This document shows, in pieces, positions 4,078 through 52,371 of a stretch of 64,000 nt of DNA (positions are counted from its first letter, which is position 1; each line of letters starts with the position of its first letter). The notes under the pieces were generated by a model that searched no databases, was not told where the DNA came from, and saw only the letters and a list, made by a program, of their open reading frames with translations. Origin of the DNA: an uncultured Bacilli bacterium (GTDB taxonomy: Bacteria > Bacillota_I > Bacilli_A > RF39 > UBA660); assembly GCA_934141575.1 (NCBI GenBank), contig CAKPCJ010000002.1:3899-67898 (forward strand). The letters run 5' to 3'. Both the position numbers and the translations under genes were made by a program.

Positions 4078-4426
4078 TATCTTATAAGCCATGTTCTGTA
4101 CCTATAAAGGCGGTAAACATTTATCTATCAATATTGATCTCGTACTCGATTCTTGTTCTCTAATACAAGTTCCCCTACCAATTTTGGGTTTCTCACTCGC
4201 GGGGTTTACCTCGTTCCACTTTTAGAGTTTCCTCCAAACATCGTCACTATGGCACTTTTACATCTCATAAACCATAGACAAATCCTTAGGTTTACAAAAA
4301 GCCGTTAATAATAAATTATTACTCTAGGTTATTTTTTCCCTAGACGCGAACACTACCATCATCACAGACAGTGTGAGCATGGACTTTCCTCTACACATAA
4401 AATGTGCAGCGTTTACCCAGATATTA
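4078..4426 (-). ncRNA. rnpB: RNase P RNA, type B (Firmicute type)
   Basis: The reverse complement carries the universal P4 element GAGGAAAGUCCAUGCUC near the 5' end. It also contains a long block, GUGGAACGAGGUAAACCCCGCGAGUGAGAAACCCAAAAUUGGUAGGGGAAC, almost identical to B. subtilis rnpB. It ends with ...ACAUGGCUUAUAAG like B. subtilis, and lies downstream of gpsB as in B. subtilis. Confidence 0.9.
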
Positions 4427-10273: not shown

Positions 10274-11986
10274 TTATTTTTGGAGTATCTGATAATATTT
10301 ATTAGTCTCCATTAATTCTGAGTGCATACCTCTTCCAACTAATTTACCATTATCAATTACGATTATATCATCTGCGATCTTCATTAATTGCGGTTTATGA
10401 GTTATCATCAATATAGTGTGATCTTTCTTTAAACCCTTTAATATTTTCATTATATGTTTTGATGTAGCAATATCTAAATTAGAAGTAACTTCATCAAAAA
10501 GCAATATTTCTGACTTTGAAAGTAAAGTTCTAGCAAGCGCTATTAACTGTTTCTGACCACTTGAAATATTTTCAGCATTCTTAGTAAGCTTTGTATTATA
10601 ACCATCAGGCAAACTCATAATAAAATCATGTATTCCTACCCTCTTACAAGCAGCAACTTGATTATCTTTATTAGAATCTACTAAATTCAAATTTTCCCTT
10701 ATGCTCATATCGAATATAAATGGTTTCTGAGTAACAATTGATACATTTGACGAATAAACATCTTGAGAATATTCATAAATGTCAACACCATCTATTGTAA
10801 TATTGCCACTAGTTGCCTTATATAACCTAAGTAATAATCTAAAAATTGTACTTTTACCACTACCGCTTTTACCAACAATAGCTGTTAAAGTATCAGGTGC
10901 AATATCAAAACTAACATTTTTTAATGTCTGTTTATTTTCATATGTGAAATTTACATTATCAAAAGAAATATATCCATATATATCATCATTAGCATTTTTC
11001 CCAAATTCCAACATATTTGAAGTTTTATAATTTAATATTTTAGCTATTCTTCTAATTCTTACTGAATAAGAGCCTAAATCATTTAACTTCTTATACAAAT
11101 TCTTATTTTTAGATACAACCTCATCATAATAACCAATTGATAGAATCAACATAGAAACATCATAATGACCACCTATTATTAAAAATATAGAAAAACAATA
11201 AATAAAGATTTTACCAATTCCAAGCAGCATTGGAAGTATAACGGAAACTATATCGTTATATTTTCTTTTTAAAACATATACAGATTTCCACTCACTTTTA
11301 TAATCCTCTAAATATTCAGTTATGTGAGAATCCATATTAAAAGTTTTTATTTCCGTATTACCATCCATAACTTGACCTAAAAGAGAAGATATTTTATCTT
11401 GAGATTTTCTCTGAAGAGATAGATAATAATCTCTTTTTTTCATATTTTTAGTAACTAAATAAAGATTTAATAAACTTAGTACTATAGTAAATATTCCCAT
11501 AAATATATTTACCTTAAAAAGAATAACAATTGATATTAAAACACTTAATGAATAGTTAAGAGAATCAAATATCAAGTCAGGTATACATTGAACTTTTCCA
11601 ATATCATTAAACGCAGTATTAATTAAAAATGACGTAGAAATATCTTTAGAAAAGTTCTCATCAAAAAAAGTAACTTTTTTCATAACCTTTTGCTGCAAAA
11701 TATTATGTGTATAATTAGCATCCAGTGCATATGCAACGTAATTAAAATGATATGACAAAGTATATATTACAAAACTTAATGTCAAAAATATTAAACTAAG
11801 GAAAGCATTATTATAATCACCAACAGTAACATGCTTAACTATTAATGATGCAAAATATGGTAATAACAAAATAGTAACATTTGATAAAACAGAAGTTATA
11901 TACAAAAATACTAAATATTTTTTTTTATTAGCACCCAAACTAAAATATTCTTTAGCAATATCATAATATCTCTTAAACATTGTCAA
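10274..11986 (-). CDS. ABC exporter, fused permease/ATPase (heterodimer partner with consensus ATPase site)
   Basis: 570 aa. 6-TM domain followed by an NBD with Walker A GKSGSGKST, signature LSSGQKQLIALARTLL, Walker B ILLFDEVTS and H-loop MITHK. Confidence 0.85.
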   Translation of the reverse strand: MTMFKRYYDIAKEYFSLGANKKKYLVFLYITSVLSNVTILLLPYFASLIVKHVTVGDYNNAFLSLIFLTLSFVIYTLSYHFNYVAYALDANYTHNILQQKVMKKVTFFDENFSKDISTSFLINTAFNDIGKVQCIPDLIFDSLNYSLSVLISIVILFKVNIFMGIFTIVLSLLNLYLVTKNMKKRDYYLSLQRKSQDKISSLLGQVMDGNTEIKTFNMDSHITEYLEDYKSEWKSVYVLKRKYNDIVSVILPMLLGIGKIFIYCFSIFLIIGGHYDVSMLILSIGYYDEVVSKNKNLYKKLNDLGSYSVRIRRIAKILNYKTSNMLEFGKNANDDIYGYISFDNVNFTYENKQTLKNVSFDIAPDTLTAIVGKSGSGKSTIFRLLLRLYKATSGNITIDGVDIYEYSQDVYSSNVSIVTQKPFIFDMSIRENLNLVDSNKDNQVAACKRVGIHDFIMSLPDGYNTKLTKNAENISSGQKQLIALARTLLSKSEILLFDEVTSNLDIATSKHIMKILKGLKKDHTILMITHKPQLMKIADDIIVIDNGKLVGRGMHSELMETNKYYQILQK

Positions 11987-13718
11987 ACACTCCTATTCTA
12001 CTTGGTGATTTTCTAGATTGTAACATTTGATATATTTCATTATTTTGCATTAAATCTTTATGTTTACCTTTACCAACTATTTTTCCTTTATTTAAAACAA
12101 CTATTTCATCAGCACATTTCATAAGCTCTGGTTTCTTAGTAACAAGTATTATAGTATGATTTCTCTTTAATTCTTTTAAAATCGAAGGAACAAGTTTAGC
12201 CGTATCAGGATCAAGTGATGTAGTTATATCATCAAAAATAAGAATCTCTGACGTTGATAAAAGAGTTCTAGCAATAGATATAAGTTGCTTTTGACCACCA
12301 GATATATTATTTGCGTTTTCTCTTAATACTGTATCATATTGTTCAGGTAAACTCATTATAAAGTCATGCATTCCCACTTTTTTACAAGCCTCAACCTGAT
12401 GTTCTACATTAGTATCAACAAAATTCAAATTTTCCCTTATACTCATATTAAATATAAATGGTTTTTGATTTACAACAGATACATTTGACGAATATACTTC
12501 TTTAGTATAATCATATATATTTACATCATCTATATAAATATTACCCTCAGTTACCTTATTAACTCTAAGCAAAAGATTACAAAGAACAGTTTTTCCACTT
12601 CCAGCCTCTCCTACAATTGCAACGACTGTATTTTTATTTACTTTAAGATTAATATTTTTCAATATAGCTTTATCTTTATACTTAAATGACACATTTTTAA
12701 ATTCTACAATTCCTTCTATATCATCAGTGTTATTATCGCCATATTCAATATTAGTATTATATTTATAATTTAGTATTTGATTAACTCTGCATACAGCTAT
12801 ATTAACCTCTCTTATTGTAGTTGTAGAAGATATCAAATCATCTAAATATGAAACTAGATTTTCATGATACGCTATTATAAGAACTAAAACATCTATCGTA
12901 GTATTTCCCTTAATCATTGATAAAAGTAATATTATATAAAGAACAATTCTAAAGAAATATGTTATGAACTTTACATCACTATACATTACAGTACAATATT
13001 TTCTTCTTTTTAAATAATTTTTAGAAAATGTTTTCTGAATATAATTAAGTTTATTTTTTAATTTTTCAAATATATTAAATGTTTTTATTTCTTGTAACCC
13101 TGATATAATTTGTCCAAGCAAACTGCTATATTTATCATCACAAGAAACAACTTTCTTCTGATAATGTGCCACTTTTCTATCAGCCCTGTTTCTTACTGAT
13201 ATATAAATAATAGAATATAAAAGCATTATAGATGCAAAATACGGACTATACATAAATACTATAACTAGCACAGCAAGTACTTGGATAATTGTTGTAAACA
13301 ATTCTGATATCTGATCAGCCATATCACCTATATCAACAACATCACTATTAATACTATTCATTATTCTTTCTTTTGAAAATAATCTAGAAAAATTATTATC
13401 AACATTCAAAAGTTTATTTAAAATTTTAGATTGAATTGTTGTATAACAATATCTCATGTTATAACCATATATCTTATAATTAGCAAATAAACTAATATTG
13501 TAAAGAATATATGTTATAAAAAATAAAAACAAGCTTATGTATGACATATATATATCAGCGTTTGTAACATATTTAACAATTAATGATGAAAAATAGGGTA
13601 ACAAAAGATTCAAAGATTTATAAAATACAGCAGTAATTATTGTTATTACTAAATATTTTCTTTTCATCTTTGTTAATTTAAAATAATCTTTTAAAAACTT
13701 ATAATACTCTCTTATCAT
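11973..13718 (-). CDS. ABC exporter, fused permease/ATPase (heterodimer partner with degenerate Walker B)
   Basis: 581 aa. Walker A GEAGSGKT, signature ISGGQKQLISIARTLL, and Walker B ILIFDDITTS where the catalytic Glu is replaced by Asp. It overlaps the downstream ABC gene by 14 nt. Confidence 0.85.
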   Translation of the reverse strand: MIREYYKFLKDYFKLTKMKRKYLVITIITAVFYKSLNLLLPYFSSLIVKYVTNADIYMSYISLFLFFITYILYNISLFANYKIYGYNMRYCYTTIQSKILNKLLNVDNNFSRLFSKERIMNSINSDVVDIGDMADQISELFTTIIQVLAVLVIVFMYSPYFASIMLLYSIIYISVRNRADRKVAHYQKKVVSCDDKYSSLLGQIISGLQEIKTFNIFEKLKNKLNYIQKTFSKNYLKRRKYCTVMYSDVKFITYFFRIVLYIILLLSMIKGNTTIDVLVLIIAYHENLVSYLDDLISSTTTIREVNIAVCRVNQILNYKYNTNIEYGDNNTDDIEGIVEFKNVSFKYKDKAILKNINLKVNKNTVVAIVGEAGSGKTVLCNLLLRVNKVTEGNIYIDDVNIYDYTKEVYSSNVSVVNQKPFIFNMSIRENLNFVDTNVEHQVEACKKVGMHDFIMSLPEQYDTVLRENANNISGGQKQLISIARTLLSTSEILIFDDITTSLDPDTAKLVPSILKELKRNHTIILVTKKPELMKCADEIVVLNKGKIVGKGKHKDLMQNNEIYQMLQSRKSPSRIGVFDNV

Positions 13719-13787
13719 AAAACTCTCCCACTATTATAGCCATTATACCACACAGTTCGACAAAAAAAAATAAAAGACAATCTGCTC

Positions 13788-14756
13788 TTACTTTTTCTTA
13801 TCAAATGTACTATTATATGGATTATCTCTTTCCAATTTAAATTTTTTACCATTTAAAATTGCGGAAACAATCAGATTAGAACATACCTTTTTTCTAAATT
13901 CTTCTACTTTTTCTCTATCATCACACCTTGAAAAAATTTGATACAACTCAACCTGTAGTTTAGTAGATAAAATAAGACCTAACGTTAAATTATTATTATA
14001 ATTACATAATTTATCCGTTTCAGTAATAATTTGAAGTGCCTCTTCATGAGTAGCGTACTTTTCTAATTGCTTTATAACTCCCAAAAGATTAGCATTAAAA
14101 TATAAATGCTGCATATCTTTTGGATCTTCAAAAAAGCACTCCAAAAGCTTTACAATTTTAACAAGTTCATAATATCCACAGACAAGATTATGGTTAAAAT
14201 ACCTAGAAGCAAGCAACTCAGTATATCCTTCATTAATTCCTCTTCCAATTCCATTCCATGAATTATTAACAAACATACAGTGATCAAAACCGACTAATGA
14301 ATATCCATAAACATACGGCAATGAAGAAGCAGCATGTAATAACTCATGAGAAAGAGCATATGAAAAAGAATAATAAATCGAATGATCTGGATTCCTATAA
14401 AAATTAGAAAATTTATCCGATAGCGGAACAGAATCATTAAAGAAACTATTAATCTTAACAACTGCTAAATTCCTTGAGATATTATCAAAATCCTCCTTTG
14501 ATACATTTTTACCAATAACATCTAAAAATTTTCTTATAACCTTTGGCTTATTACAAACACTTAATTTATCACGATTACTATTATTTCTAATAAAATTTAC
14601 AGAATCATCATCAAGTATAAATTCTTCTCTATTTGTTTTATCTAAAGCATAATTTTTTAAGGTATTTTTAATACTGCTAAATAAATCAAGAGATAAAACA
14701 ATTGCCACCCATTCACCAGATTTTAAAATATTTTCAATAATTTCTTGCACAACCAA
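13788..14756 (-). CDS. Cytoplasmic zinc-metallopeptidase-like protein (gluzincin/thermolysin-type HExxH...GxNExxxE motif)
   Basis: 322 aa, no signal peptide. HELLH at about aa 137, followed about 35 aa later by GRGINEGYTELLAS. Compare thermolysin HELTH...GGINEAISD. Confidence 0.5.
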   Translation of the reverse strand: MVVQEIIENILKSGEWVAIVLSLDLFSSIKNTLKNYALDKTNREEFILDDDSVNFIRNNSNRDKLSVCNKPKVIRKFLDVIGKNVSKEDFDNISRNLAVVKINSFFNDSVPLSDKFSNFYRNPDHSIYYSFSYALSHELLHAASSLPYVYGYSLVGFDHCMFVNNSWNGIGRGINEGYTELLASRYFNHNLVCGYYELVKIVKLLECFFEDPKDMQHLYFNANLLGVIKQLEKYATHEEALQIITETDKLCNYNNNLTLGLILSTKLQVELYQIFSRCDDREKVEEFRKKVCSNLIVSAILNGKKFKLERDNPYNSTFDKKK

Positions 14757-14792
14757 TCACCGTAAAAATATTAACATACTTCAAAAAATATT

Positions 14793-15161
14793 TCAACAAA
14801 TATTACATTGTCTCTTTATCCATAAAATTATAATTCCAACAACATAATCTATTTGATTATCTGTTAATTTAATATTTGGACTTATTCCATACCACTTATA
14901 AAGACATCCTCTACAACATGTTGCAGTAGCGTGCTGTGCTATAAAAACAGGATGTCCCTTCATTGGGGTTTGTTTTCCATCGTTTTGAATTATTGCTGGT
15001 GCCAACCTCTTTATTATAAAATCATATGCATGTTTTTCTATCACATCAATTCCTTTTTCTAACACATAATCTTTATACTTTTGTCCTAATTTAAAACTAC
15101 TTCTAAATTTTGATTTAGAAAGTTTTTCTAATTGTTCTTCCATCAAATCTCTCCTATCCAC
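14793..15161 (-). CDS. Small Cys-rich protein, DUF4186-like
   Basis: 122 aa with the motif HPVFIAQHATATCCRGCLYKWYGI and a C-terminal CNIC. The pattern is recalled as characteristic of DUF4186, from memory and unverified. Confidence 0.4.
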   Translation of the reverse strand: MDRRDLMEEQLEKLSKSKFRSSFKLGQKYKDYVLEKGIDVIEKHAYDFIIKRLAPAIIQNDGKQTPMKGHPVFIAQHATATCCRGCLYKWYGISPNIKLTDNQIDYVVGIIILWIKRQCNIC

Positions 15162-15320
15162 ACTTACAATATTAACACAAATATAGTTTAAATTTTTTTG
15201 TTTGCAATTTTATTAAAAAATTGTAACATTTAACAAAGATTATAACATATATTTATTAATAACAAGTATTGTAAAATAATATAGCTATATGCTACAATAC
15301 ACTGCAAAGGAGAAATAACA

Positions 15321-15971
15321 ATGTCAAAAGAAGAAAACGTATTAAATTATTACGTTATGTGTAATAAACTAAAAAATATCATAAGAACAGGATGGAAAAA
15401 ATGGAATGTGCAAAGAGAAAGAATCGAAAGCGTTGCAGAACATGTATATGGCGTTCAAATGCTCGCACTTGCAATGAAATCTGAATACAAATATGATATT
15501 GATATAATGAAAGTAATATTAATGCTATCTATACATGAATTAGGTGAAACCATTATTGGAGATTTAACTTTATTCCAAATAGATAAAAAAGAAAAAGAAA
15601 AAATAGAACATGCAGCTGTTCATAATATTTTAAGTTCTCTATTAGACGGCGAACAAATAGAAAAGCTTTTTATTGAATTTGATGAACAAAAAACAAAAGA
15701 AGCAATTTTTGCATATCAATGCGATAAATTAGAATGCGATTTACAGTGCAAACTATACGATGAAGAAAGTTGTGTAGATTTAACAAAACAACCTGAAAAT
15801 GATATAATTAATAACGAAAAAATTAAAGATTTATTAGAATGCAATAAGTCTTGGTCTAGAATGTGGTTAAAGTTTGGACAACAAATTTACCCATATGATA
15901 ATAATTTTATGGCTGTTTCAAACTATGCACTAAATAATTCAATAGCAAAGATTAAAGTATATAATAAATAG
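15321..15971 (+). CDS. HD-domain phosphohydrolase, YfbR-like 5'-deoxynucleotidase family
   Basis: 216 aa. HD motif ESVAEHVYGVQMLA...HELGETIIGD, typical of the HD_3/YfbR family. Confidence 0.7.
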   Translation: MSKEENVLNYYVMCNKLKNIIRTGWKKWNVQRERIESVAEHVYGVQMLALAMKSEYKYDIDIMKVILMLSIHELGETIIGDLTLFQIDKKEKEKIEHAAVHNILSSLLDGEQIEKLFIEFDEQKTKEAIFAYQCDKLECDLQCKLYDEESCVDLTKQPENDIINNEKIKDLLECNKSWSRMWLKFGQQIYPYDNNFMAVSNYALNNSIAKIKVYNK

Positions 15972-16021
15972 CAGGTTACACTACATAATAAAAACCAATG
16001 AATGAATAATCATTGATTTTT

Positions 16022-16753
16022 TTATCTTCTAAAATAATCTATTGGCTTCCTAACAGATCCTAATTTTTTTGAAAGTTCATGTACAACTTCAGTGTTTTCA
16101 TCAATTTTAATTTCTGATAGTTCAGCTATCTTTTGAACAATATCCAAGTAATACATCTTAAAAGTTTTATAATCTAGCTTGCGAACTATACAATCTAAAC
16201 AAATATCTCTAAATAAAGTTAATAATTCTCTTTTATTATGAGTTTTTAAAACATCCTCAGGTAATTTTGTTAAATTAAAGCAATCAGGATCAATAATAAC
16301 TATAGAATTCTTGCCAAGAATTGCATTCTCACGTTTAACATCATGAACTATTATTGAATGTTTTGTAAATATTTCAAACAATGCTTCAAGTTCTTTAAAA
16401 TTATCAATAAGATAATCAATCTCCATTTCCAAAACATTTACAGAATCATTAGGGTAATACTTCGCTGTATATGCATCAATATGAAACTTAGAAATACTCA
16501 TTTTATAAGTAAAAAGTGTAAGCAATGTCATATCACTATAAACATCATAAAGTTCAACTAAATGGGGATTATCTATACATTTCAATGTGTCAAAAATTGA
16601 CTGTTTTAATCTATATCTAGATTCTGTTTCAAAATAATATTTTTTAAGCATTATATGCCCATCAGTAAATATTTTTCCACAATCACCATGATTTACATAT
16701 ATCATTAAATCCATATCAATTTTTGCTTTTTCACAATTTCTATCATATAACAT
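16022..16753 (-). CDS. Mini protein-kinase-like protein
   Basis: 243 aa. Gly-rich segment NHGDCGKIF with downstream Lys (MLKKYY); catalytic-loop-like IIVHDVKRENAIL (compare HRDLKPENIL); DFG-like VIIDPDCF. Confidence 0.45.
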   Translation of the reverse strand: MLYDRNCEKAKIDMDLMIYVNHGDCGKIFTDGHIMLKKYYFETESRYRLKQSIFDTLKCIDNPHLVELYDVYSDMTLLTLFTYKMSISKFHIDAYTAKYYPNDSVNVLEMEIDYLIDNFKELEALFEIFTKHSIIVHDVKRENAILGKNSIVIIDPDCFNLTKLPEDVLKTHNKRELLTLFRDICLDCIVRKLDYKTFKMYYLDIVQKIAELSEIKIDENTEVVHELSKKLGSVRKPIDYFRR

Positions 16754-16811
16754 AACTACAATTACTCCTTAATAACAAAGTATTATATCACACAATATAT
16801 AAAAAACAACT

Positions 16812-17513
16812 TTAGTTACTAATGTATTTATAATACTTAGATAAAAATGGTAAGCTATTCTCAACAAACGCAATATTTCTTTCAATCATAAACATTAATA
16901 TTTTATTAGCGTTAACAGAATCATTATATTGTAACATCGAAATTTTGCTAGGAGCTATATTAATATTAAAAAAAGTGTGCATATTCCAAGGCTCTTGTTT
17001 AGAGTTATTTACGTTACTATCATATGAATATATATATTTTAATTGATTTCTTGAATACTTTTGATTTTTAACTTCATCTATATCATCATATGAAAAATCC
17101 TTTCCCTCTTCCAAATTTAAAACTAAAAAAACACTATTTTCCAAAATATTTTTTAGTTTTTTTATAGCATAATTTATCTTACTATCTCGTTTTATCCAAT
17201 TTTTAAATATAGTATCAACTACAATTCTTGGAAAACAGGGATTAGTCATGCAAAATATTCCACATCTATATATAAAAGTATTTTTTGGTCTTAAAATAAG
17301 CCACTTAATCCAAGCATCCATCAATATCAATACATTTTTTTCACCAATAGAAAAAAATACCTTTCTACTTTTCTCTATTCCTTTTGAATTTTTACCTATT
17401 CTTGGTTCTAGTCCGTTTCTAAAAATTGATTGTATATTAGAAGAATTTGTATAATGAAAAAATGAAGATTCCAAATCAATTTCACTAACCTGTTTAAATC
17501 TTATTTCATCCAC
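16812..17513 (-). CDS. Hypothetical protein with DarT/ADP-ribosyltransferase-like N-terminal motif
   Basis: 233 aa. The N-terminus FFHYTNSSNIQSIFRNGLEP matches the aromatic-H-aromatic-T...N-L-x-S-I-L-x-x-G-L pattern of DarT (DUF4433) and related H-Y-E ART folds. The rest is unassigned. Confidence 0.3.
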   Translation of the reverse strand: MDEIRFKQVSEIDLESSFFHYTNSSNIQSIFRNGLEPRIGKNSKGIEKSRKVFFSIGEKNVLILMDAWIKWLILRPKNTFIYRCGIFCMTNPCFPRIVVDTIFKNWIKRDSKINYAIKKLKNILENSVFLVLNLEEGKDFSYDDIDEVKNQKYSRNQLKYIYSYDSNVNNSKQEPWNMHTFFNINIAPSKISMLQYNDSVNANKILMFMIERNIAFVENSLPFLSKYYKYISN

Positions 17514-17541
17514 TATACATCACCAATCAACATTATAGCAT

Positions 17542-18201
17542 TTATTTAACTTTTATTGAATCAATAAAATTAGATAAAGTAGAATACGAAATAGTTTTAC
17601 CACAAATATCATTAATAATACTTTGATTTAACATTTTAGTTACTAAATAATCTTCTAACTTCTTTGACAATGGCTTCAATATAAAATCTGGATATATAAG
17701 TTCCAAGATAATATTTAAATACAACCTGAGTACAAACGCTAATCTTTCCTTTTTAGAATCATTAGCGATTTCTGTTGTATAAGTATCTAAATCTACTATT
17801 TTTGCATCGTTGCCACTAACAAGAATACCATCAATATTAAAATCCATGGGATAAATTTCATTATTAGTTAGCTCTTCTAAATTTTTTAATACTAATTTTA
17901 TAATACTAATTTTAGTTTTATTCGATAATTCAGTTAAACTAGACAAAGTTTTATATTCTTCAAAATAAGGAATTTGTACACCAGCAAGCTTATCATTTTC
18001 CAAAATAATGCCAGTTGGTAACACAGTACCTTTAAGATTACGTTGTTTTGAAGTCAAGCATAATAAATGATATATACTACTTACATTATTGGTATTATAT
18101 AACTTATATAAGTCATTACCAACTATATAAAGTTTAGATTCAGAGCCACAAAAATCATGTTTCTTTAAATCAAAATTTTCATTTAATTGAATAAAATTCA
18201 T
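17542..18201 (-). CDS. Hypothetical kinase-like protein (paralogue-like to 16022..16753)
   Basis: 219 aa. Gly-rich CGSESKLYIVG and a Lys in LYKLY; catalytic-loop-like YPMDFNIDGILV and IVDLD (compare HGDLHPGNIL...DFG). Weak. Confidence 0.3.
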   Translation of the reverse strand: MNFIQLNENFDLKKHDFCGSESKLYIVGNDLYKLYNTNNVSSIYHLLCLTSKQRNLKGTVLPTGIILENDKLAGVQIPYFEEYKTLSSLTELSNKTKISIIKLVLKNLEELTNNEIYPMDFNIDGILVSGNDAKIVDLDTYTTEIANDSKKERLAFVLRLYLNIILELIYPDFILKPLSKKLEDYLVTKMLNQSIINDICGKTISYSTLSNFIDSIKVK

Positions 18202-18263
18202 AATAAAACCCCTTACAAAAATTTGTAGAGGTTATACTAACACTTTAAAATAAATATGTCAAA

Positions 18264-18629
18264 TTAAACATTTTCAAACAATAATCTAATTTGCTCACTA
18301 TCATCATTAAAACTAATTAACTCTTCTTTTTCAACTTCTACTATATATTTAATAAAATACTTATCATTTACATGATAATAGTACAACTTATCGTACATAC
18401 TATCAAAGTTTGCACAAGATGAAGTTATTTCTTCAATATCATAAACTTTTCCTATATTATCCAATTTTTGCAAATAATCTCTATTAGGAATCTCACTACT
18501 ATTACCATTACTATCAAAAACTAAAAAATATCTCTTGTATTTGCTGCCATCGATTTTATACTGTAAAAATTTTTCGTTAAATATATACTCATCAATAATA
18601 GAATATTTGTAATTCTTTTCATATATCAT
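18264..18629 (-). CDS. Hypothetical protein
   Basis: 121 aa ORF, first gene of the four-gene minus-strand string next to tRNA-Leu. No recognisable motif. Confidence 0.35.
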   Translation of the reverse strand: MIYEKNYKYSIIDEYIFNEKFLQYKIDGSKYKRYFLVFDSNGNSSEIPNRDYLQKLDNIGKVYDIEEITSSCANFDSMYDKLYYYHVNDKYFIKYIVEVEKEELISFNDDSEQIRLLFENV

Positions 18630-18719
18630 ATAATATTCATCACCATCTAACTAAACAAAAAGCTAACTACAACTAGTTAGCATTTATAAGTAAGCCTAAA
18701 AATAAGCATTAAACCATAA

Positions 18720-18804
18720 TGGTGCCCATAGTCGGACTCGAACCGACATGAATTTCTTCGCACGATTTTGAGTCGTGTGCGTCTACCAATTCCGCCATAC
18801 GGGC
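18720..18804 (-). tRNA. tRNA-Leu (anticodon CAA)
   Basis: Reverse complement: GCCCGTATGGCGGAATTGGTAGACGCACACGACTCAAAATCGTGCGAAGAAATTCATGTCGGTTCGAGTCCGACTATGGGCACCA. Cloverleaf with anticodon loop CUCAAAA, long variable arm, GGTTCGAGTCC T-arm and encoded CCA. Confidence 0.9.
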
Positions 18805-18845
18805 ATATAGACATTATAACATAAGATATTATAAATTGCTATACT

Positions 18846-19427
18846 TTATTGAACGATTTCCTCAATTTCTTCTTTATACTTAGTATCAAATATAGAACTT
18901 TCAACAGCTTCACTAACAACATTATCAAATTTTGGAAGTTCATCTTTACTTGCCAAATTAAAATAATCCAAGAATTTATCTGTTGTTTTATAAAGGTTTG
19001 GTCTTCCAGGAAGTTCAGATTTACCAGCTTCGCATATCAACCCTTTAAGTACCAATTTTCTAACTAACTGGCTACTACTAACTCCCCTTATTTGATCAAC
19101 TTCTATCCTAGTAACTGGTTCATTATACGCTATCACTGCTAATGTCTCAAGCGCTGCCTGTGATAAAGTATTACTTGTTGCCTCTACTAGTTTCTTATAA
19201 TATGAAGCATATTCTTTTTTTGTAACAAGTTTATATTTATTTCCTAAAAACACTAAACTTATACCTCTATTTTCATTATTATAATCTTTAGAAAGTTCAT
19301 CTATAATTTCTGTAACAATATCATCAGAAACATCTAAAACTTCACATATTTCTTCTTTTGATAATCCCTCATCGCCAACTATAAATAAAAGTCCTTCCAA
19401 AATTGGCTTAAACTTCATTATTACCAC
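18846..19427 (-). CDS. scpB: Segregation and condensation protein B
   Basis: 193 aa. N-terminal ILEGLLFIVGDEGLSKEEI winged helix and overall ScpB pattern; downstream of, and overlapping, scpA. Confidence 0.9.
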   Translation of the reverse strand: MVIMKFKPILEGLLFIVGDEGLSKEEICEVLDVSDDIVTEIIDELSKDYNNENRGISLVFLGNKYKLVTKKEYASYYKKLVEATSNTLSQAALETLAVIAYNEPVTRIEVDQIRGVSSSQLVRKLVLKGLICEAGKSELPGRPNLYKTTDKFLDYFNLASKDELPKFDNVVSEAVESSIFDTKYKEEIEEIVQ

Positions 19428-20148
19428 CCTTTTTCAAAATTAGTATTTGATCAAAATTTGCATCCTGTTTTATTTCCAAACTAGATTCTTTAGCCATCTC
19501 AAGTATAGTTAAAAATGTTACTACAACATAATCCTTAGTCATAATATCAAAAAGTTCATCAAAATAAACCCTTTTCTTTTTTTCTAAGATACTTGCTACT
19601 TGTTTTTTTCTCTCAACTACAGATATTTCTTTTTTAGATATATACGTATTAAGAGGCCTATTTAATTGTTTCTTGTTAAGTAATTCTTGAAAAGCCTGAA
19701 TTAATATATTAACATCTTTGCTATTTTCAGGATCTATTATTTCATCTTCAATATATTCTTTCATATCATCCGGTTGCTTAGTAAATATAAAGCTTCTAGT
19801 TAGTTCTAAATCTCTAAATTTTGTACTCATCTCTTTATACTGTTTATATTCGACTAATCTTTTTATCAATTGTTCTTTGGGATCTTCTATATACTCATCA
19901 TTATCATCAACTGCCGTTTGTTTTGGAAGCAACGATCTTGATTTCATTTCTATTAGCTCAGCTGCCATAACTAAATAAGTAGATGCTATTGTTAAATTTA
20001 ACTCTTGCATTTTTTCAATGTAATCCATATACTGAGTTACAACTCTTTCTATTGATATGTCATAAATATCTATGTCATCTTGTTTTATTAAATGAAGTAA
20101 CAAATCAAGAGGCCCCTCAAATTCATCTATCTTAACAGTATAATCCAT
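19408..20148 (-). CDS. scpA: Segregation and condensation protein A
   Basis: 246 aa. N-terminal FEGPLDLLLHLIKQDDIDIYDISI is the kleisin ScpA signature. Confidence 0.9.
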   Translation of the reverse strand: MDYTVKIDEFEGPLDLLLHLIKQDDIDIYDISIERVVTQYMDYIEKMQELNLTIASTYLVMAAELIEMKSRSLLPKQTAVDDNDEYIEDPKEQLIKRLVEYKQYKEMSTKFRDLELTRSFIFTKQPDDMKEYIEDEIIDPENSKDVNILIQAFQELLNKKQLNRPLNTYISKKEISVVERKKQVASILEKKKRVYFDELFDIMTKDYVVVTFLTILEMAKESSLEIKQDANFDQILILKKGGNNEV

Positions 20149-20202: not shown

Positions 20203-21231
20203 TTATTTTTTAAAGTTATCAAAAATTTTATTTATATCTGGAAAAAAACTTATAAGTAAAATTAATAGTGCAAAAAATATTATCATTCCTACCATTTCAT
20301 ATGTTTTCCTGCTAGAATTTTGTTTCTTTATATTTGCATCTATTTCATCTTGTCTATTATATATAGGTATTGCTCCCCTTCCAGTATCAAAATCTACATT
20401 CGTACTCAAATTCTGATTAGTAAGATTATCAGAATTAGAATTTTGTCCTATATTTATTTCTTGCTTTTTATCAAGACCACTTGGCATGTCTTCGCTACTG
20501 TTTTTCATATCATCAAAAATAAATCTAGTAACCACTGTTTCAGTTGGAGTTTTTCCATCATTAAAGGTGTCGACATTGTTAGTATCATATTGCATCATTC
20601 CAGCTGTATTATATGTTTCAGGTACCTCTGGTTCTTCAACATTTTCCTGAACTTTTTCCTTTTCAACATTTTCATCAGCATTATACTCCATCATACCTTC
20701 ACTATCAAATTCTGTTTTTTCTGGAATATAATCACTCTTATTATTTGGATCGTATGGAGATATAACATAATCACCATCAGTTTGTAAATCATTATGAAGC
20801 ATCGGATCATAATCCATAAAATCATCACTATACGTAACTTCCTTTGGTACCTCCACTTTAGTTTCAACAGGATTTTTCTCTTTATTTACCTCTGGAGTTG
20901 CAGTTTTTAAGGCTTCTTCATAACTTTCTGACTTCTCATCATCATACATATAAGCTAAAGTATTATCAACATTATTATTTACTTGTTCTCTATTAGAAGT
21001 ACTATATACAGGAGTACCATAATTTTCAACTTGATTTCTATTTGAAGAACTATAAACCAACCTACTACCATCCGGATTAATATATTGATTATCTTGCTGT
21101 ATAAATTGATCTCTATTGGAATTAGTATAAACAGGTGTTCCATAATTATTATTTTCTACATTATTTTTTGATGACACATCCTTAAAATCATCATCATCCA
21201 ACATCTCAAAATCATCATTCATGGTGCACAC
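20203..21231 (-). CDS. Tail-anchored acidic repeat protein (unknown function)
   Basis: 342 aa, very acidic. Two copies of NYGTPVY(T/S)(N/T)SNR(D/E)Q, and a single C-terminal TM helix (MVGMIIFFALLILLISFF) about 15 aa from the end. Confidence 0.45.
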   Translation of the reverse strand: MCTMNDDFEMLDDDDFKDVSSKNNVENNNYGTPVYTNSNRDQFIQQDNQYINPDGSRLVYSSSNRNQVENYGTPVYSTSNREQVNNNVDNTLAYMYDDEKSESYEEALKTATPEVNKEKNPVETKVEVPKEVTYSDDFMDYDPMLHNDLQTDGDYVISPYDPNNKSDYIPEKTEFDSEGMMEYNADENVEKEKVQENVEEPEVPETYNTAGMMQYDTNNVDTFNDGKTPTETVVTRFIFDDMKNSSEDMPSGLDKKQEINIGQNSNSDNLTNQNLSTNVDFDTGRGAIPIYNRQDEIDANIKKQNSSRKTYEMVGMIIFFALLILLISFFPDINKIFDNFKK

Positions 21232-52082: not shown

Positions 52083-52099
52083 ATTTTCCTCCATATTTA

Positions 52100-52235
52100 C
52101 GCATCATTCTATAATTTGTCCTAAAAATTACTTTTTAGATTTGCATAGAACTTACAAGGACATGCAAGCCTTAGGAACATCCGCCGAAAATTCGATAATT
52201 CCTTCCTCGTCAACTCAAAGAGTTCGGGCGCTATA
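52100..52235 (-). promoter_or_regulatory. glmS ribozyme (GlcN6P-responsive self-cleaving riboswitch) in the glmS 5' UTR
   Basis: Minus strand reads AGCGCCCGAACU...GUUGACGAGGAAGGAAUUAUCGAAUUUUCGGCGGAUGUUCCUAAGGCUUGCAUGUCC... This matches the B. subtilis glmS ribozyme core (AGCGCCCGAACU, GACGAGGA, UUAUCGAAUUUUCGGCGGAUG) almost base for base. Confidence 0.85.
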
Positions 52236-52371
52236 ACTATTACCAAAACTATTTCTTATGCACTCACCTCCTATGATATACACCATATTATATACATATG
52301 TTTATATCATGTTTACATTATATCAAAAAAATATAATAAAAAAAACGGTTTTTTTAACCGTTTACAAATAT

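Follow-up and report, generated by a model that had tools for sequence, protein, structure and literature searches.

A four-gene block encoding an ADP-ribosyltransferase-fold-like protein between two kinase-like proteins beside tRNA-Leu(CAA) in an uncultured Bacilli bacterium

Organisation and coding status of the block

The window analysed here, a 64,000-nt stretch of DNA from an uncultured Bacilli bacterium, carries a block of four co-oriented open reading frames (ORFs) of 121, 219, 233 and 243 aa beside a tRNA-Leu(CAA) gene. All window coordinates refer to the whole stretch, and the block is read on the minus strand. One of its members is a 233-aa ADP-ribosyltransferase (ART)-fold-like protein (16812-17513), whose family matches no Pfam model. 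It is preceded by a 219-aa mini kinase-fold protein, probably a pseudokinase (17542-18201), and followed by a 243-aa minimal Hanks-type, eukaryotic protein kinase (ePK)-like kinase (16022-16753). The fourth ORF (18264-18629), closest to the tRNA gene, encodes a 121-aa orphan protein. This layout is as described in the original prediction, which saw in it a possible toxin or defence module combining a kinase with an ART. We find that the four genes are not a conserved kinase-ART module of either type.

The four ORFs are real coding genes under moderate constraint and not chance ORFs. The sister lineage L181 keeps the block at ~90% amino-acid identity, and the ratio of nonsynonymous to synonymous substitution rates (dN/dS) between the two is 0.18, 0.18, 0.16 and 0.20 for the four genes, indicating purifying selection. 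The conserved families of the three larger proteins lead to the same conclusion. For ScpA, ScpB and the ABC transporter the corresponding values are 0.05-0.07. The block is found at 98-100% identity on contigs of several human-gut metagenomes (L001-L004), and is intact on at least six contigs from different samples. An apparent disruption of the ART-like gene in L002 (2942-3200) is an assembly artefact: a scaffold join with a run of Ns and higher-GC foreign sequence, which yields a spurious 275-aa gene call and a split tblastn match.

The 121-aa protein is present only in the window species and in L181, as a cluster of six members, and the dN/dS of its gene is 0.18. It has no significant match in Pfam, NCBIfam, PADLOC or PHROGs (among the matches listed, the weakest is PADLOC BrxA, E 0.031), and no tblastn match in 170 other loci.

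The block follows scpA (19408-20148, minus strand) and scpB (18846-19427, minus). The intact tRNA-Leu(CAA) gene (18720-18804, minus), detected by ARAGORN and by the Rfam tRNA model with 57 bits, is located directly downstream of scpB. A consensus scan and reading of the sequence point to a putative terminator in the interval between the tRNA gene and the 121-aa ORF, close to the former: a hairpin (18662-18681, minus) of the form GCTAACTA-GTTG-TAGTTAGC followed by TTTTTG. The consensus scan also finds a promoter-like site (TTGACA, 17 nt, TG-TAGTAT; 18234-18262, minus; 10 of 12 matches) between the 121-aa and 219-aa genes, which is weak evidence because such sites are not enriched in the region. 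The intergenic gaps in the block include 28 bp between the 219-aa and 233-aa genes and one of 58 bp. Given the 28-bp gap, the 219-aa and 233-aa genes are probably carried on one transcript in the window species. The 243-aa gene probably has its own promoter and start, since an extended -10-like element (TGTGATATAAT; 16782-16792, minus), read from the alignment and putative in function, lies upstream of it and is followed by an AAGGAG ribosome-binding site.

An ART-fold-like protein family

The 233-aa protein contains FFHYTNSSNIQSIFRNGLEP at residues 18-37. The β1 strand carries H20-Y-T22, and the α1 helix N26, I30 and G34-L35. A signature resembling the start of DarT had been predicted at the beginning of the protein; the motif is present, but near the start and not at it. 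No Pfam family matches the protein. Its family gives 198 matches in a word-index search and 381 clusters at 50% identity in a full hidden Markov model (HMM) search. Its members come from the guts of humans, mice, rabbits and ruminants; the species-level genomes that carry them, at least 108, are all uncultured AT-rich metagenome-assembled genomes, mostly labelled Bacilli or Tenericutes.

Twelve residues are near-invariant across 75 divergent members: H20 (73/75), G34 (74/75), G40, F54, G57, W68, D146, K149, Y162, W176, N177 and T180. Position 22 is Thr or Ser in 66 of the 75. Two acidic positions are equally well kept, namely D146 (73/75) and E/D174 (73/75), the latter just before the W176-N177-M-H-T180 strand.

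The structure model of the protein is confident, with a predicted local distance difference test score (pLDDT) of 93.2. DSSP assigns a strand at residues 18-23, a helix at 24-33, a strand at 53-56 and further strands at 127-132, 178-180 and 191-196. A helical insertion spans approximately residues 58-125, and a helical tail residues 202-232. Foldseek searches with the model return nothing significant, the best matches being DarT1 (E 0.1), KptA, Tpt1 and CC0527. With the family profile searched against PDB sequences, DarT1 comes first (E 0.018) and KptA next, both aligning only on FHxT..NL.SI...GL.

In Tpt1 and CC0527, the HX[S/T] element contacts the proximal ribose (PMC8120803). The combination of a β1 H-x-[ST] motif and the α1 helix that is expected of the ART superfamily is found in the 233-aa family. 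The core of the family probably resembles the ART fold of the Tpt1 C-lobe, CC0527 and DarT type, with the ribose-contacting HxT motif kept. The protein probably has an ART-type nicotinamide adenine dinucleotide (NAD)-binding core. The ART-like fold that had been proposed is thus upheld as a resemblance to the DarT/Tpt1/CC0527 group, although only a modest one, with Foldseek remaining below significance.

Several observations count against reading the protein as an active transferase. There is no invariant Arg among the 75 members, and the second ART motif position is Phe in most of them and Tyr in 13. The original prediction had tied the ART assignment to the presence of a conserved catalytic acid; the near-invariant D146 and E/D174 are candidates for it. 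It is possible, at low probability, that the 233-aa protein is not a catalytic ADP-ribosyltransferase and instead represents a structural look-alike, or a non-catalytic binder of a nucleotide or other ligand, which shares the β-α-β start. The non-significant Foldseek result and the missing invariant Arg are in line with this, and no Glu maps to the catalytic position. No Pfam ART model is matched either: the DarT model (PF14487) does not match the 233-aa protein and detects one of the 75 members at E 0.014, below the cut-off, and Tox-ART-HYD1 is similarly marginal, with a single member at 0.019. In addition, hhalign of the family against E. coli KptA gives 2.9% over 34 residues, covering the N-terminal motif only. 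The conservation of H20 and T/S22, which fits the ribose-contact motif of Tpt1 and CC0527, and the two near-invariant acids speak against a purely structural likeness.

Some genomes carry the ART-like gene as a tandem duplicate (L094, 289-1702; L095, 8001-9429), and P0247 is a 475-aa fusion of two divergent ART-like copies. The Pfam PTS_2-RNA match of P0247 comes from the second, tandem copy of the same motif. One subclade, represented by P0222 (429 aa), has an HD phosphohydrolase domain fused C-terminally to the ART-like domain. In L005 and L006 (5325-5960, 6001-6729), the gene directly upstream of the ART-like one encodes a separate HD protein with 47% identity to that domain, and a gene for a 166-aa HAD/PNKP-phosphatase-like protein is found two genes downstream. 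The P0222 fusion and the HD adjacency in L005 hint at phosphate- or nucleotide-linked chemistry, which we regard as a lead and not as a finding. The HD_3 protein of the window shows no relationship to the P0222 HD domain.

Two families of mini kinase-fold proteins

The kinase landmarks that had been named for the 243-aa protein are all located: HGDCGKIF at residues 22-29, a Lys, HDVKRENAIL at 137-146 and IIDPD at 153-157. The protein has no model match in Pfam, NCBIfam or PADLOC. Its family comprises 38 relatives, and G23, K37, D138, N143 and D155-P-D157 are invariant in 32 sequences. Searched against PDB sequences, the family profile gives 53 matches at E<=10, of which 52 are protein kinases; the best match has an E value of 3.9e-4 and is the sole one below 1e-3. 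The alignments pair DvkreN with DLKPEN, iiDPD with IIDFG, and the Gly-loop and Lys region with GxGxxG...AxK. A bilobal kinase fold is found for the protein.

Some elements of canonical kinases are absent. With a helix starting nine residues past DPD, the protein lacks both the activation segment and the APE motif. The αC Glu is not conserved in the family, the aligned position being variable. Pfam kinase models stay below threshold for the family, and Pkinase reaches at best E 0.015, in two of 32 members. Weak matches recur to YrbL-PhoP_reg (14 of 32 members), Kinase-PolyVal, Pkinase and RIO1. In all, the 243-aa protein has a minimal version of the protein-kinase fold, with all phosphotransfer residues except the αC Glu kept, and is most likely an active, atypical ATP-dependent kinase.

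Homologues of the 243-aa protein are found among small hypothetical genes, with a tRNA-Thr gene or with a serine recombinase and Mob_Pre; in one case another mini-kinase gene comes next. The closest widespread homologue, P0128, is present on at least 172 contigs. Its gene belongs to a conserved cassette (L011-L013, 5654-8398) together with hypothetical genes of small size (90, 55, 175 and 111 aa). Upstream, the cassette is flanked variably, either by a serine recombinase and Mob_Pre or by chromosomal genes that include tRNA-Thr(CGT).

The 219-aa protein had been described as showing a weaker version of the same kinase pattern. Searched alone, it yields nothing, and its family is limited to 12 close relatives. 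It keeps G19 of the Gly-loop, K33, D120 of the catalytic loop and D137-L-D139. Bridging relatives turned up downstream of scpB in other genomes; these carry D-x-H-x-x-N and D-L-D motifs. Aligned by hhalign, the 219-aa family profile matches the 241-aa relative from L128 with 95.4% probability (E 1.9e-8). A joint profile of the 219-aa family and these relatives matches 933 PDB sequences, with RIPK1 as the best match (E 4e-7); 60 of the 60 matches listed are protein kinases. The joint alignment shows no variation at the positions of K33, D120, D137 and D139.

The two kinase-like proteins of the block are only distantly related. BLASTP between the 243-aa and 219-aa proteins is not significant, and their homology is visible only through profiles and the bridging relatives. 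The joint profile matches the 243-aa family with 89.6% in hhalign. A direct hhalign comparison of the 219-aa and 243-aa families gives a suggestive 20-39%, in which the Gly/Lys and Asp/DxD landmarks are colinear and identically spaced.

By its profiles, the 219-aa protein is predicted to have a kinase fold, as a degenerate relative in agreement with the weaker pattern first noticed. Its subfamily has M-D-F-N-x-x-G where the relatives have D-x-H-x-x-N, and the catalytic-loop Asn is replaced by the invariant G125 (MDFNxxGIL). Because this Mg-binding Asn is lost, the protein is probably a pseudokinase, catalytically impaired, which would bind rather than catalyse.

The wider family of the 219-aa protein consists of mini-kinases found throughout the clade, usually convergent with scpB. 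Mini kinase-fold genes coding for ~240-250 aa, in many cases two in tandem, are convergent with scpB in at least 25 loci (L107, L117, L119, L124, L126-L130, L133-L138, L140, L142, L145, L152, L153, L156, L157, L162). They begin ~15-45 bp past the scpB stop codon, and the ScpB proteins of these relatives are ~50% identical. A tandem pair is found in L128 (9593-10330 and 10339-11064, minus strand).

A VTC-DUF4956-NAGPA cluster precedes those homologues that are 54-58% identical to the 219-aa protein. The closest of those outside the lineage, in L098-L100 (e.g. L098, 314-7660), follow genes in the order VTC, DUF4956, a 421-aa protein and NAGPA. A CotH-domain gene is located upstream of the VTC cluster in L098, and most such loci encode large LRR_5 proteins after the 219-aa homologue.

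Genomic context and relation to known systems

The surroundings of the ART-like gene, to a distance of 8 kb, were searched by tblastn using the window proteins and by HMMs of three kinase profiles. None of 80 loci from other species contains a kinase-like or 121-aa homologue near the ART-like gene, and none of 80 ScpB-anchored loci contains an ART-like or 243-aa gene. Clustering of the neighbouring ORFs at ART-like loci gives an ABC ATPase as the commonest cluster, present in 12 loci, and the commonest tightly linked downstream gene, which is MBL-fold-like, occurs in four. A tight same-strand ORF stands beside the ART-like gene downstream in 40 of 86 loci and upstream in 35, and about a third of the loci have no tightly linked same-strand neighbour. 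No conserved partner or candidate antitoxin was found among the 86 loci. Searches of PADLOC, PHROGs and IMG/VR, and of phages by tblastn, gave no significant match for the block proteins. The proposed kinase-ART toxin or defence module is thus not borne out: the three families do not co-occur in any of these loci outside the lineage, and the ART-like gene has no conserved partner.

The block is nevertheless tight, co-oriented and conserved in two lineages at ~90% amino-acid identity, which counts against treating its genes as independent, and it may have a species-specific function. In that case, the 219-aa pseudokinase, the 243-aa kinase or both would regulate or neutralise the ART-like enzyme or be regulated by it, whether as a toxin-antitoxin pair, as a defence system or as a kinase-fold regulator of an ART similar to SidJ-SidE. 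We consider such a pair or triple unlikely. The short gaps of 28 and 58 bp, the shared orientation, the intact block in L181 and on the contigs from different samples, and the purifying selection on all four genes would fit it. SidJ provides a precedent of a kinase-fold protein that modifies an ART (PMC6858067), and in one other lineage a PP2C-like gene is located immediately downstream of the ART-like gene. Set against this are the separation of the families in the 80 ART-like and 80 ScpB loci, the lack of PADLOC matches and the apparent promoter of the 243-aa gene. Moreover, the ART-like family is usually solitary, which argues against an intrinsic toxicity that needs a partner.

The tRNA flank had been taken to fit an acquired island, albeit without an integrase. 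In agreement with this, the ~6 kb on each side contain no called integrase. Recent integration of a mobile or genomic island at tRNA-Leu would account for the tRNA adjacency and for the insertions taken up at this spot, and relatives of the 243-aa gene do occur near recombinase and Mob_Pre genes or tRNA-Thr. In L181 (6080-8533), two extra genes, encoding proteins of 117 aa (minus strand) and 643 aa (plus), are placed between tRNA-Leu and the 121-aa gene; neither protein has a Pfam match above threshold. Their presence marks the position as an insertion hot spot. A recent island is nonetheless very improbable. The search for a repeat of the tRNA 3' end found no direct repeat in 11000-18810 and thus no att site. 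The GC content of the block (24-26%) and its GC skew are like those of the surroundings in this AT-rich window (GC ~22-33%), and no link to phages or IMG/VR was detected.

The distribution of the genes points in the same direction. The ScpB-tRNA-Leu(CAA) arrangement is also present in L079, L102, L103, L139 and L181, and among relatives the distance of tRNA-Leu(CAA) from scpB (0 to 8 kb) and its orientation relative to scpB vary. In L079, ScpAB and tRNA-Leu are followed by three unrelated genes and the ART-like gene; in L035, the ART-like gene is 1.4 kb from scpB. As the ART-like gene is found near ScpAB and tRNA-Leu in these two distant relatives, and mini-kinases are found beside scpB across the clade, both the ART-like gene and a mini-kinase have probably long been part of a variable neighbourhood rather than arriving as recent cargo. 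An empty-site search by ScpB in metagenomes found no close relatives of the window species, the identity being at most 55%.

Other genes of the neighbourhood include an HD_3 gene (15321-15971), which is convergent to the block and next after the 243-aa ORF. Beyond it lie DUF4186, a 322-aa protein and ABC transporters. The 322-aa protein (13788-14756, minus) has no Pfam match; its HELLH and INEGYTE motifs are gluzincin-metalloprotease-like. Compared with L181, its gene is the fastest-evolving of the neighbourhood, with 80% identity and a dN/dS of 0.24. P0204, an ART-like fusion, has a C-terminal HELLH...TEG domain that shows no BLAST similarity to this HELLH...NEGYTE protein. Upstream of scpA, a 342-aa Asn/Asp-rich protein (20203-21231, minus) contains a repeated YGTPVY(T/S)xSNR(D/E)Q and a C-terminal hydrophobic segment, with no family assignment. 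Rfam detects two further RNA elements in the window (4080-4424, minus; 52096-52243, minus), class B RNase P and a glmS ribozyme, consistent with a Bacillota genome.

On balance, we favour the explanation that the block is a patch specific to the lineage, made up of accessory genes that evolve separately, in the variable interval after scpA-scpB-tRNA-Leu(CAA), and not a conserved kinase-ART system. Its host is an uncultured, AT-rich gut member of the Bacilli. Within this patch, the 233-aa protein would bind NAD+ and, at levels that are not toxic, modify an endogenous substrate with ADP-ribose or a related group. The substrate may be a nucleic acid, a nucleotide or a small molecule, our best guess by analogy, because the nearest structural relatives modify nucleic-acid phosphates or bases, possibly also small molecules. 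The enzyme would act alone and would not be intrinsically toxic, since no antitoxin is conserved and about a third of its loci offer no tightly linked same-strand neighbour.

As the kinase-ART toxin module fails, there is no case for pursuing the block as a new defence system. What is new are the families themselves. The ART-fold family has no model in Pfam, NCBIfam, PADLOC or PHROG, falls between Tpt1/CC0527 and DarT, and combines a helical insertion with the absence of a partner. Being widespread and solitary, it is the most useful of the three, and identifying its substrate would extend a poorly understood, non-toxin branch of bacterial ADP-ribosylation. The two mini-kinase families likewise have no model in these four collections, and the scpB-adjacent one is a clade-wide syntenic feature.

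Among known kinases, the 243-aa family can be compared with Hanks-type Ser/Thr kinases such as YabT and PknB, and with the small atypical kinases YrbL, RIO and Kinase-PolyVal. The Gly loop, the Lys, D-x-K-x-x-N and D-x-D are invariant in the family as in these kinases. The 243-aa protein differs in its small size and in lacking an activation segment, the APE motif and a conserved αC Glu, and it has a paralogue-like neighbour, the 219-aa protein, without the catalytic Asn.

The closest likeness of the 233-aa family to characterised ARTs is to the C-terminal lobe of Tpt1/KptA and to CC0527 (DUF952), 'divergent ARTs' with an H-H-h motif. The β1 HxT and the α1 ..sI...GL.P are common to all of them, as probably is a small ART core without an obvious catalytic Glu. 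These relatives are frequently non-toxic, stand-alone proteins (PMC8120803), which the 233-aa family probably has in common with them. Membership in Tpt1/KptA is rejected: the 233-aa protein has neither the R-H-R-R tetrad nor a conserved Arg, Pfam PTS_2-RNA is unmatched, and the ART motif starting at residue 18 leaves no room for the N-terminal winged-helix lobe. The second motif position is Phe or Tyr and not His as in Tpt1 and CC0527, and the protein has a helical insertion of ~50 residues together with the C-terminal helical tail. With DarT (DUF4433) of DarTG, the family shares a nearly identical [FY]-H-[FY]-T-x-x-x-N-L-x-S-I-x-x-x-G-L. Membership in DarT is rejected nonetheless: apart from the absent Pfam match, no DarG-type macrodomain neighbour, or any other conserved one, is found among the 86 loci, and no equivalent of the catalytic Glu is identified.

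The original prediction had named no described toxin or defence module that combines a kinase with an ART. A functional pairing of the two folds would not be unprecedented, because the SidJ-SidE pair is known. In Legionella, the pseudokinase SidJ glutamylates and inactivates the ART domain of the SidE family (PMC6858067). SidJ differs in being a large, calmodulin-dependent, secreted effector, and the pairing in the window is not conserved outside one lineage. A far-reaching version of the analogy, which we hold to be improbable as a whole, would make the 233-aa protein the representative of a new clade of NAD+-using transferases in uncultured host-associated Bacilli. With its Tpt1/CC0527/DarT-like core, H-F/Y motif, helical insertion and absence of a partner gene, it would serve as a non-toxic housekeeping or regulatory enzyme, captured in the window lineage into an operon with a controlling pseudokinase. 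The window does encode a putative degenerate kinase-fold protein beside a putative ART-fold protein, for which SidJ-SidE would be the precedent if the 219-aa/233-aa pair is functional.

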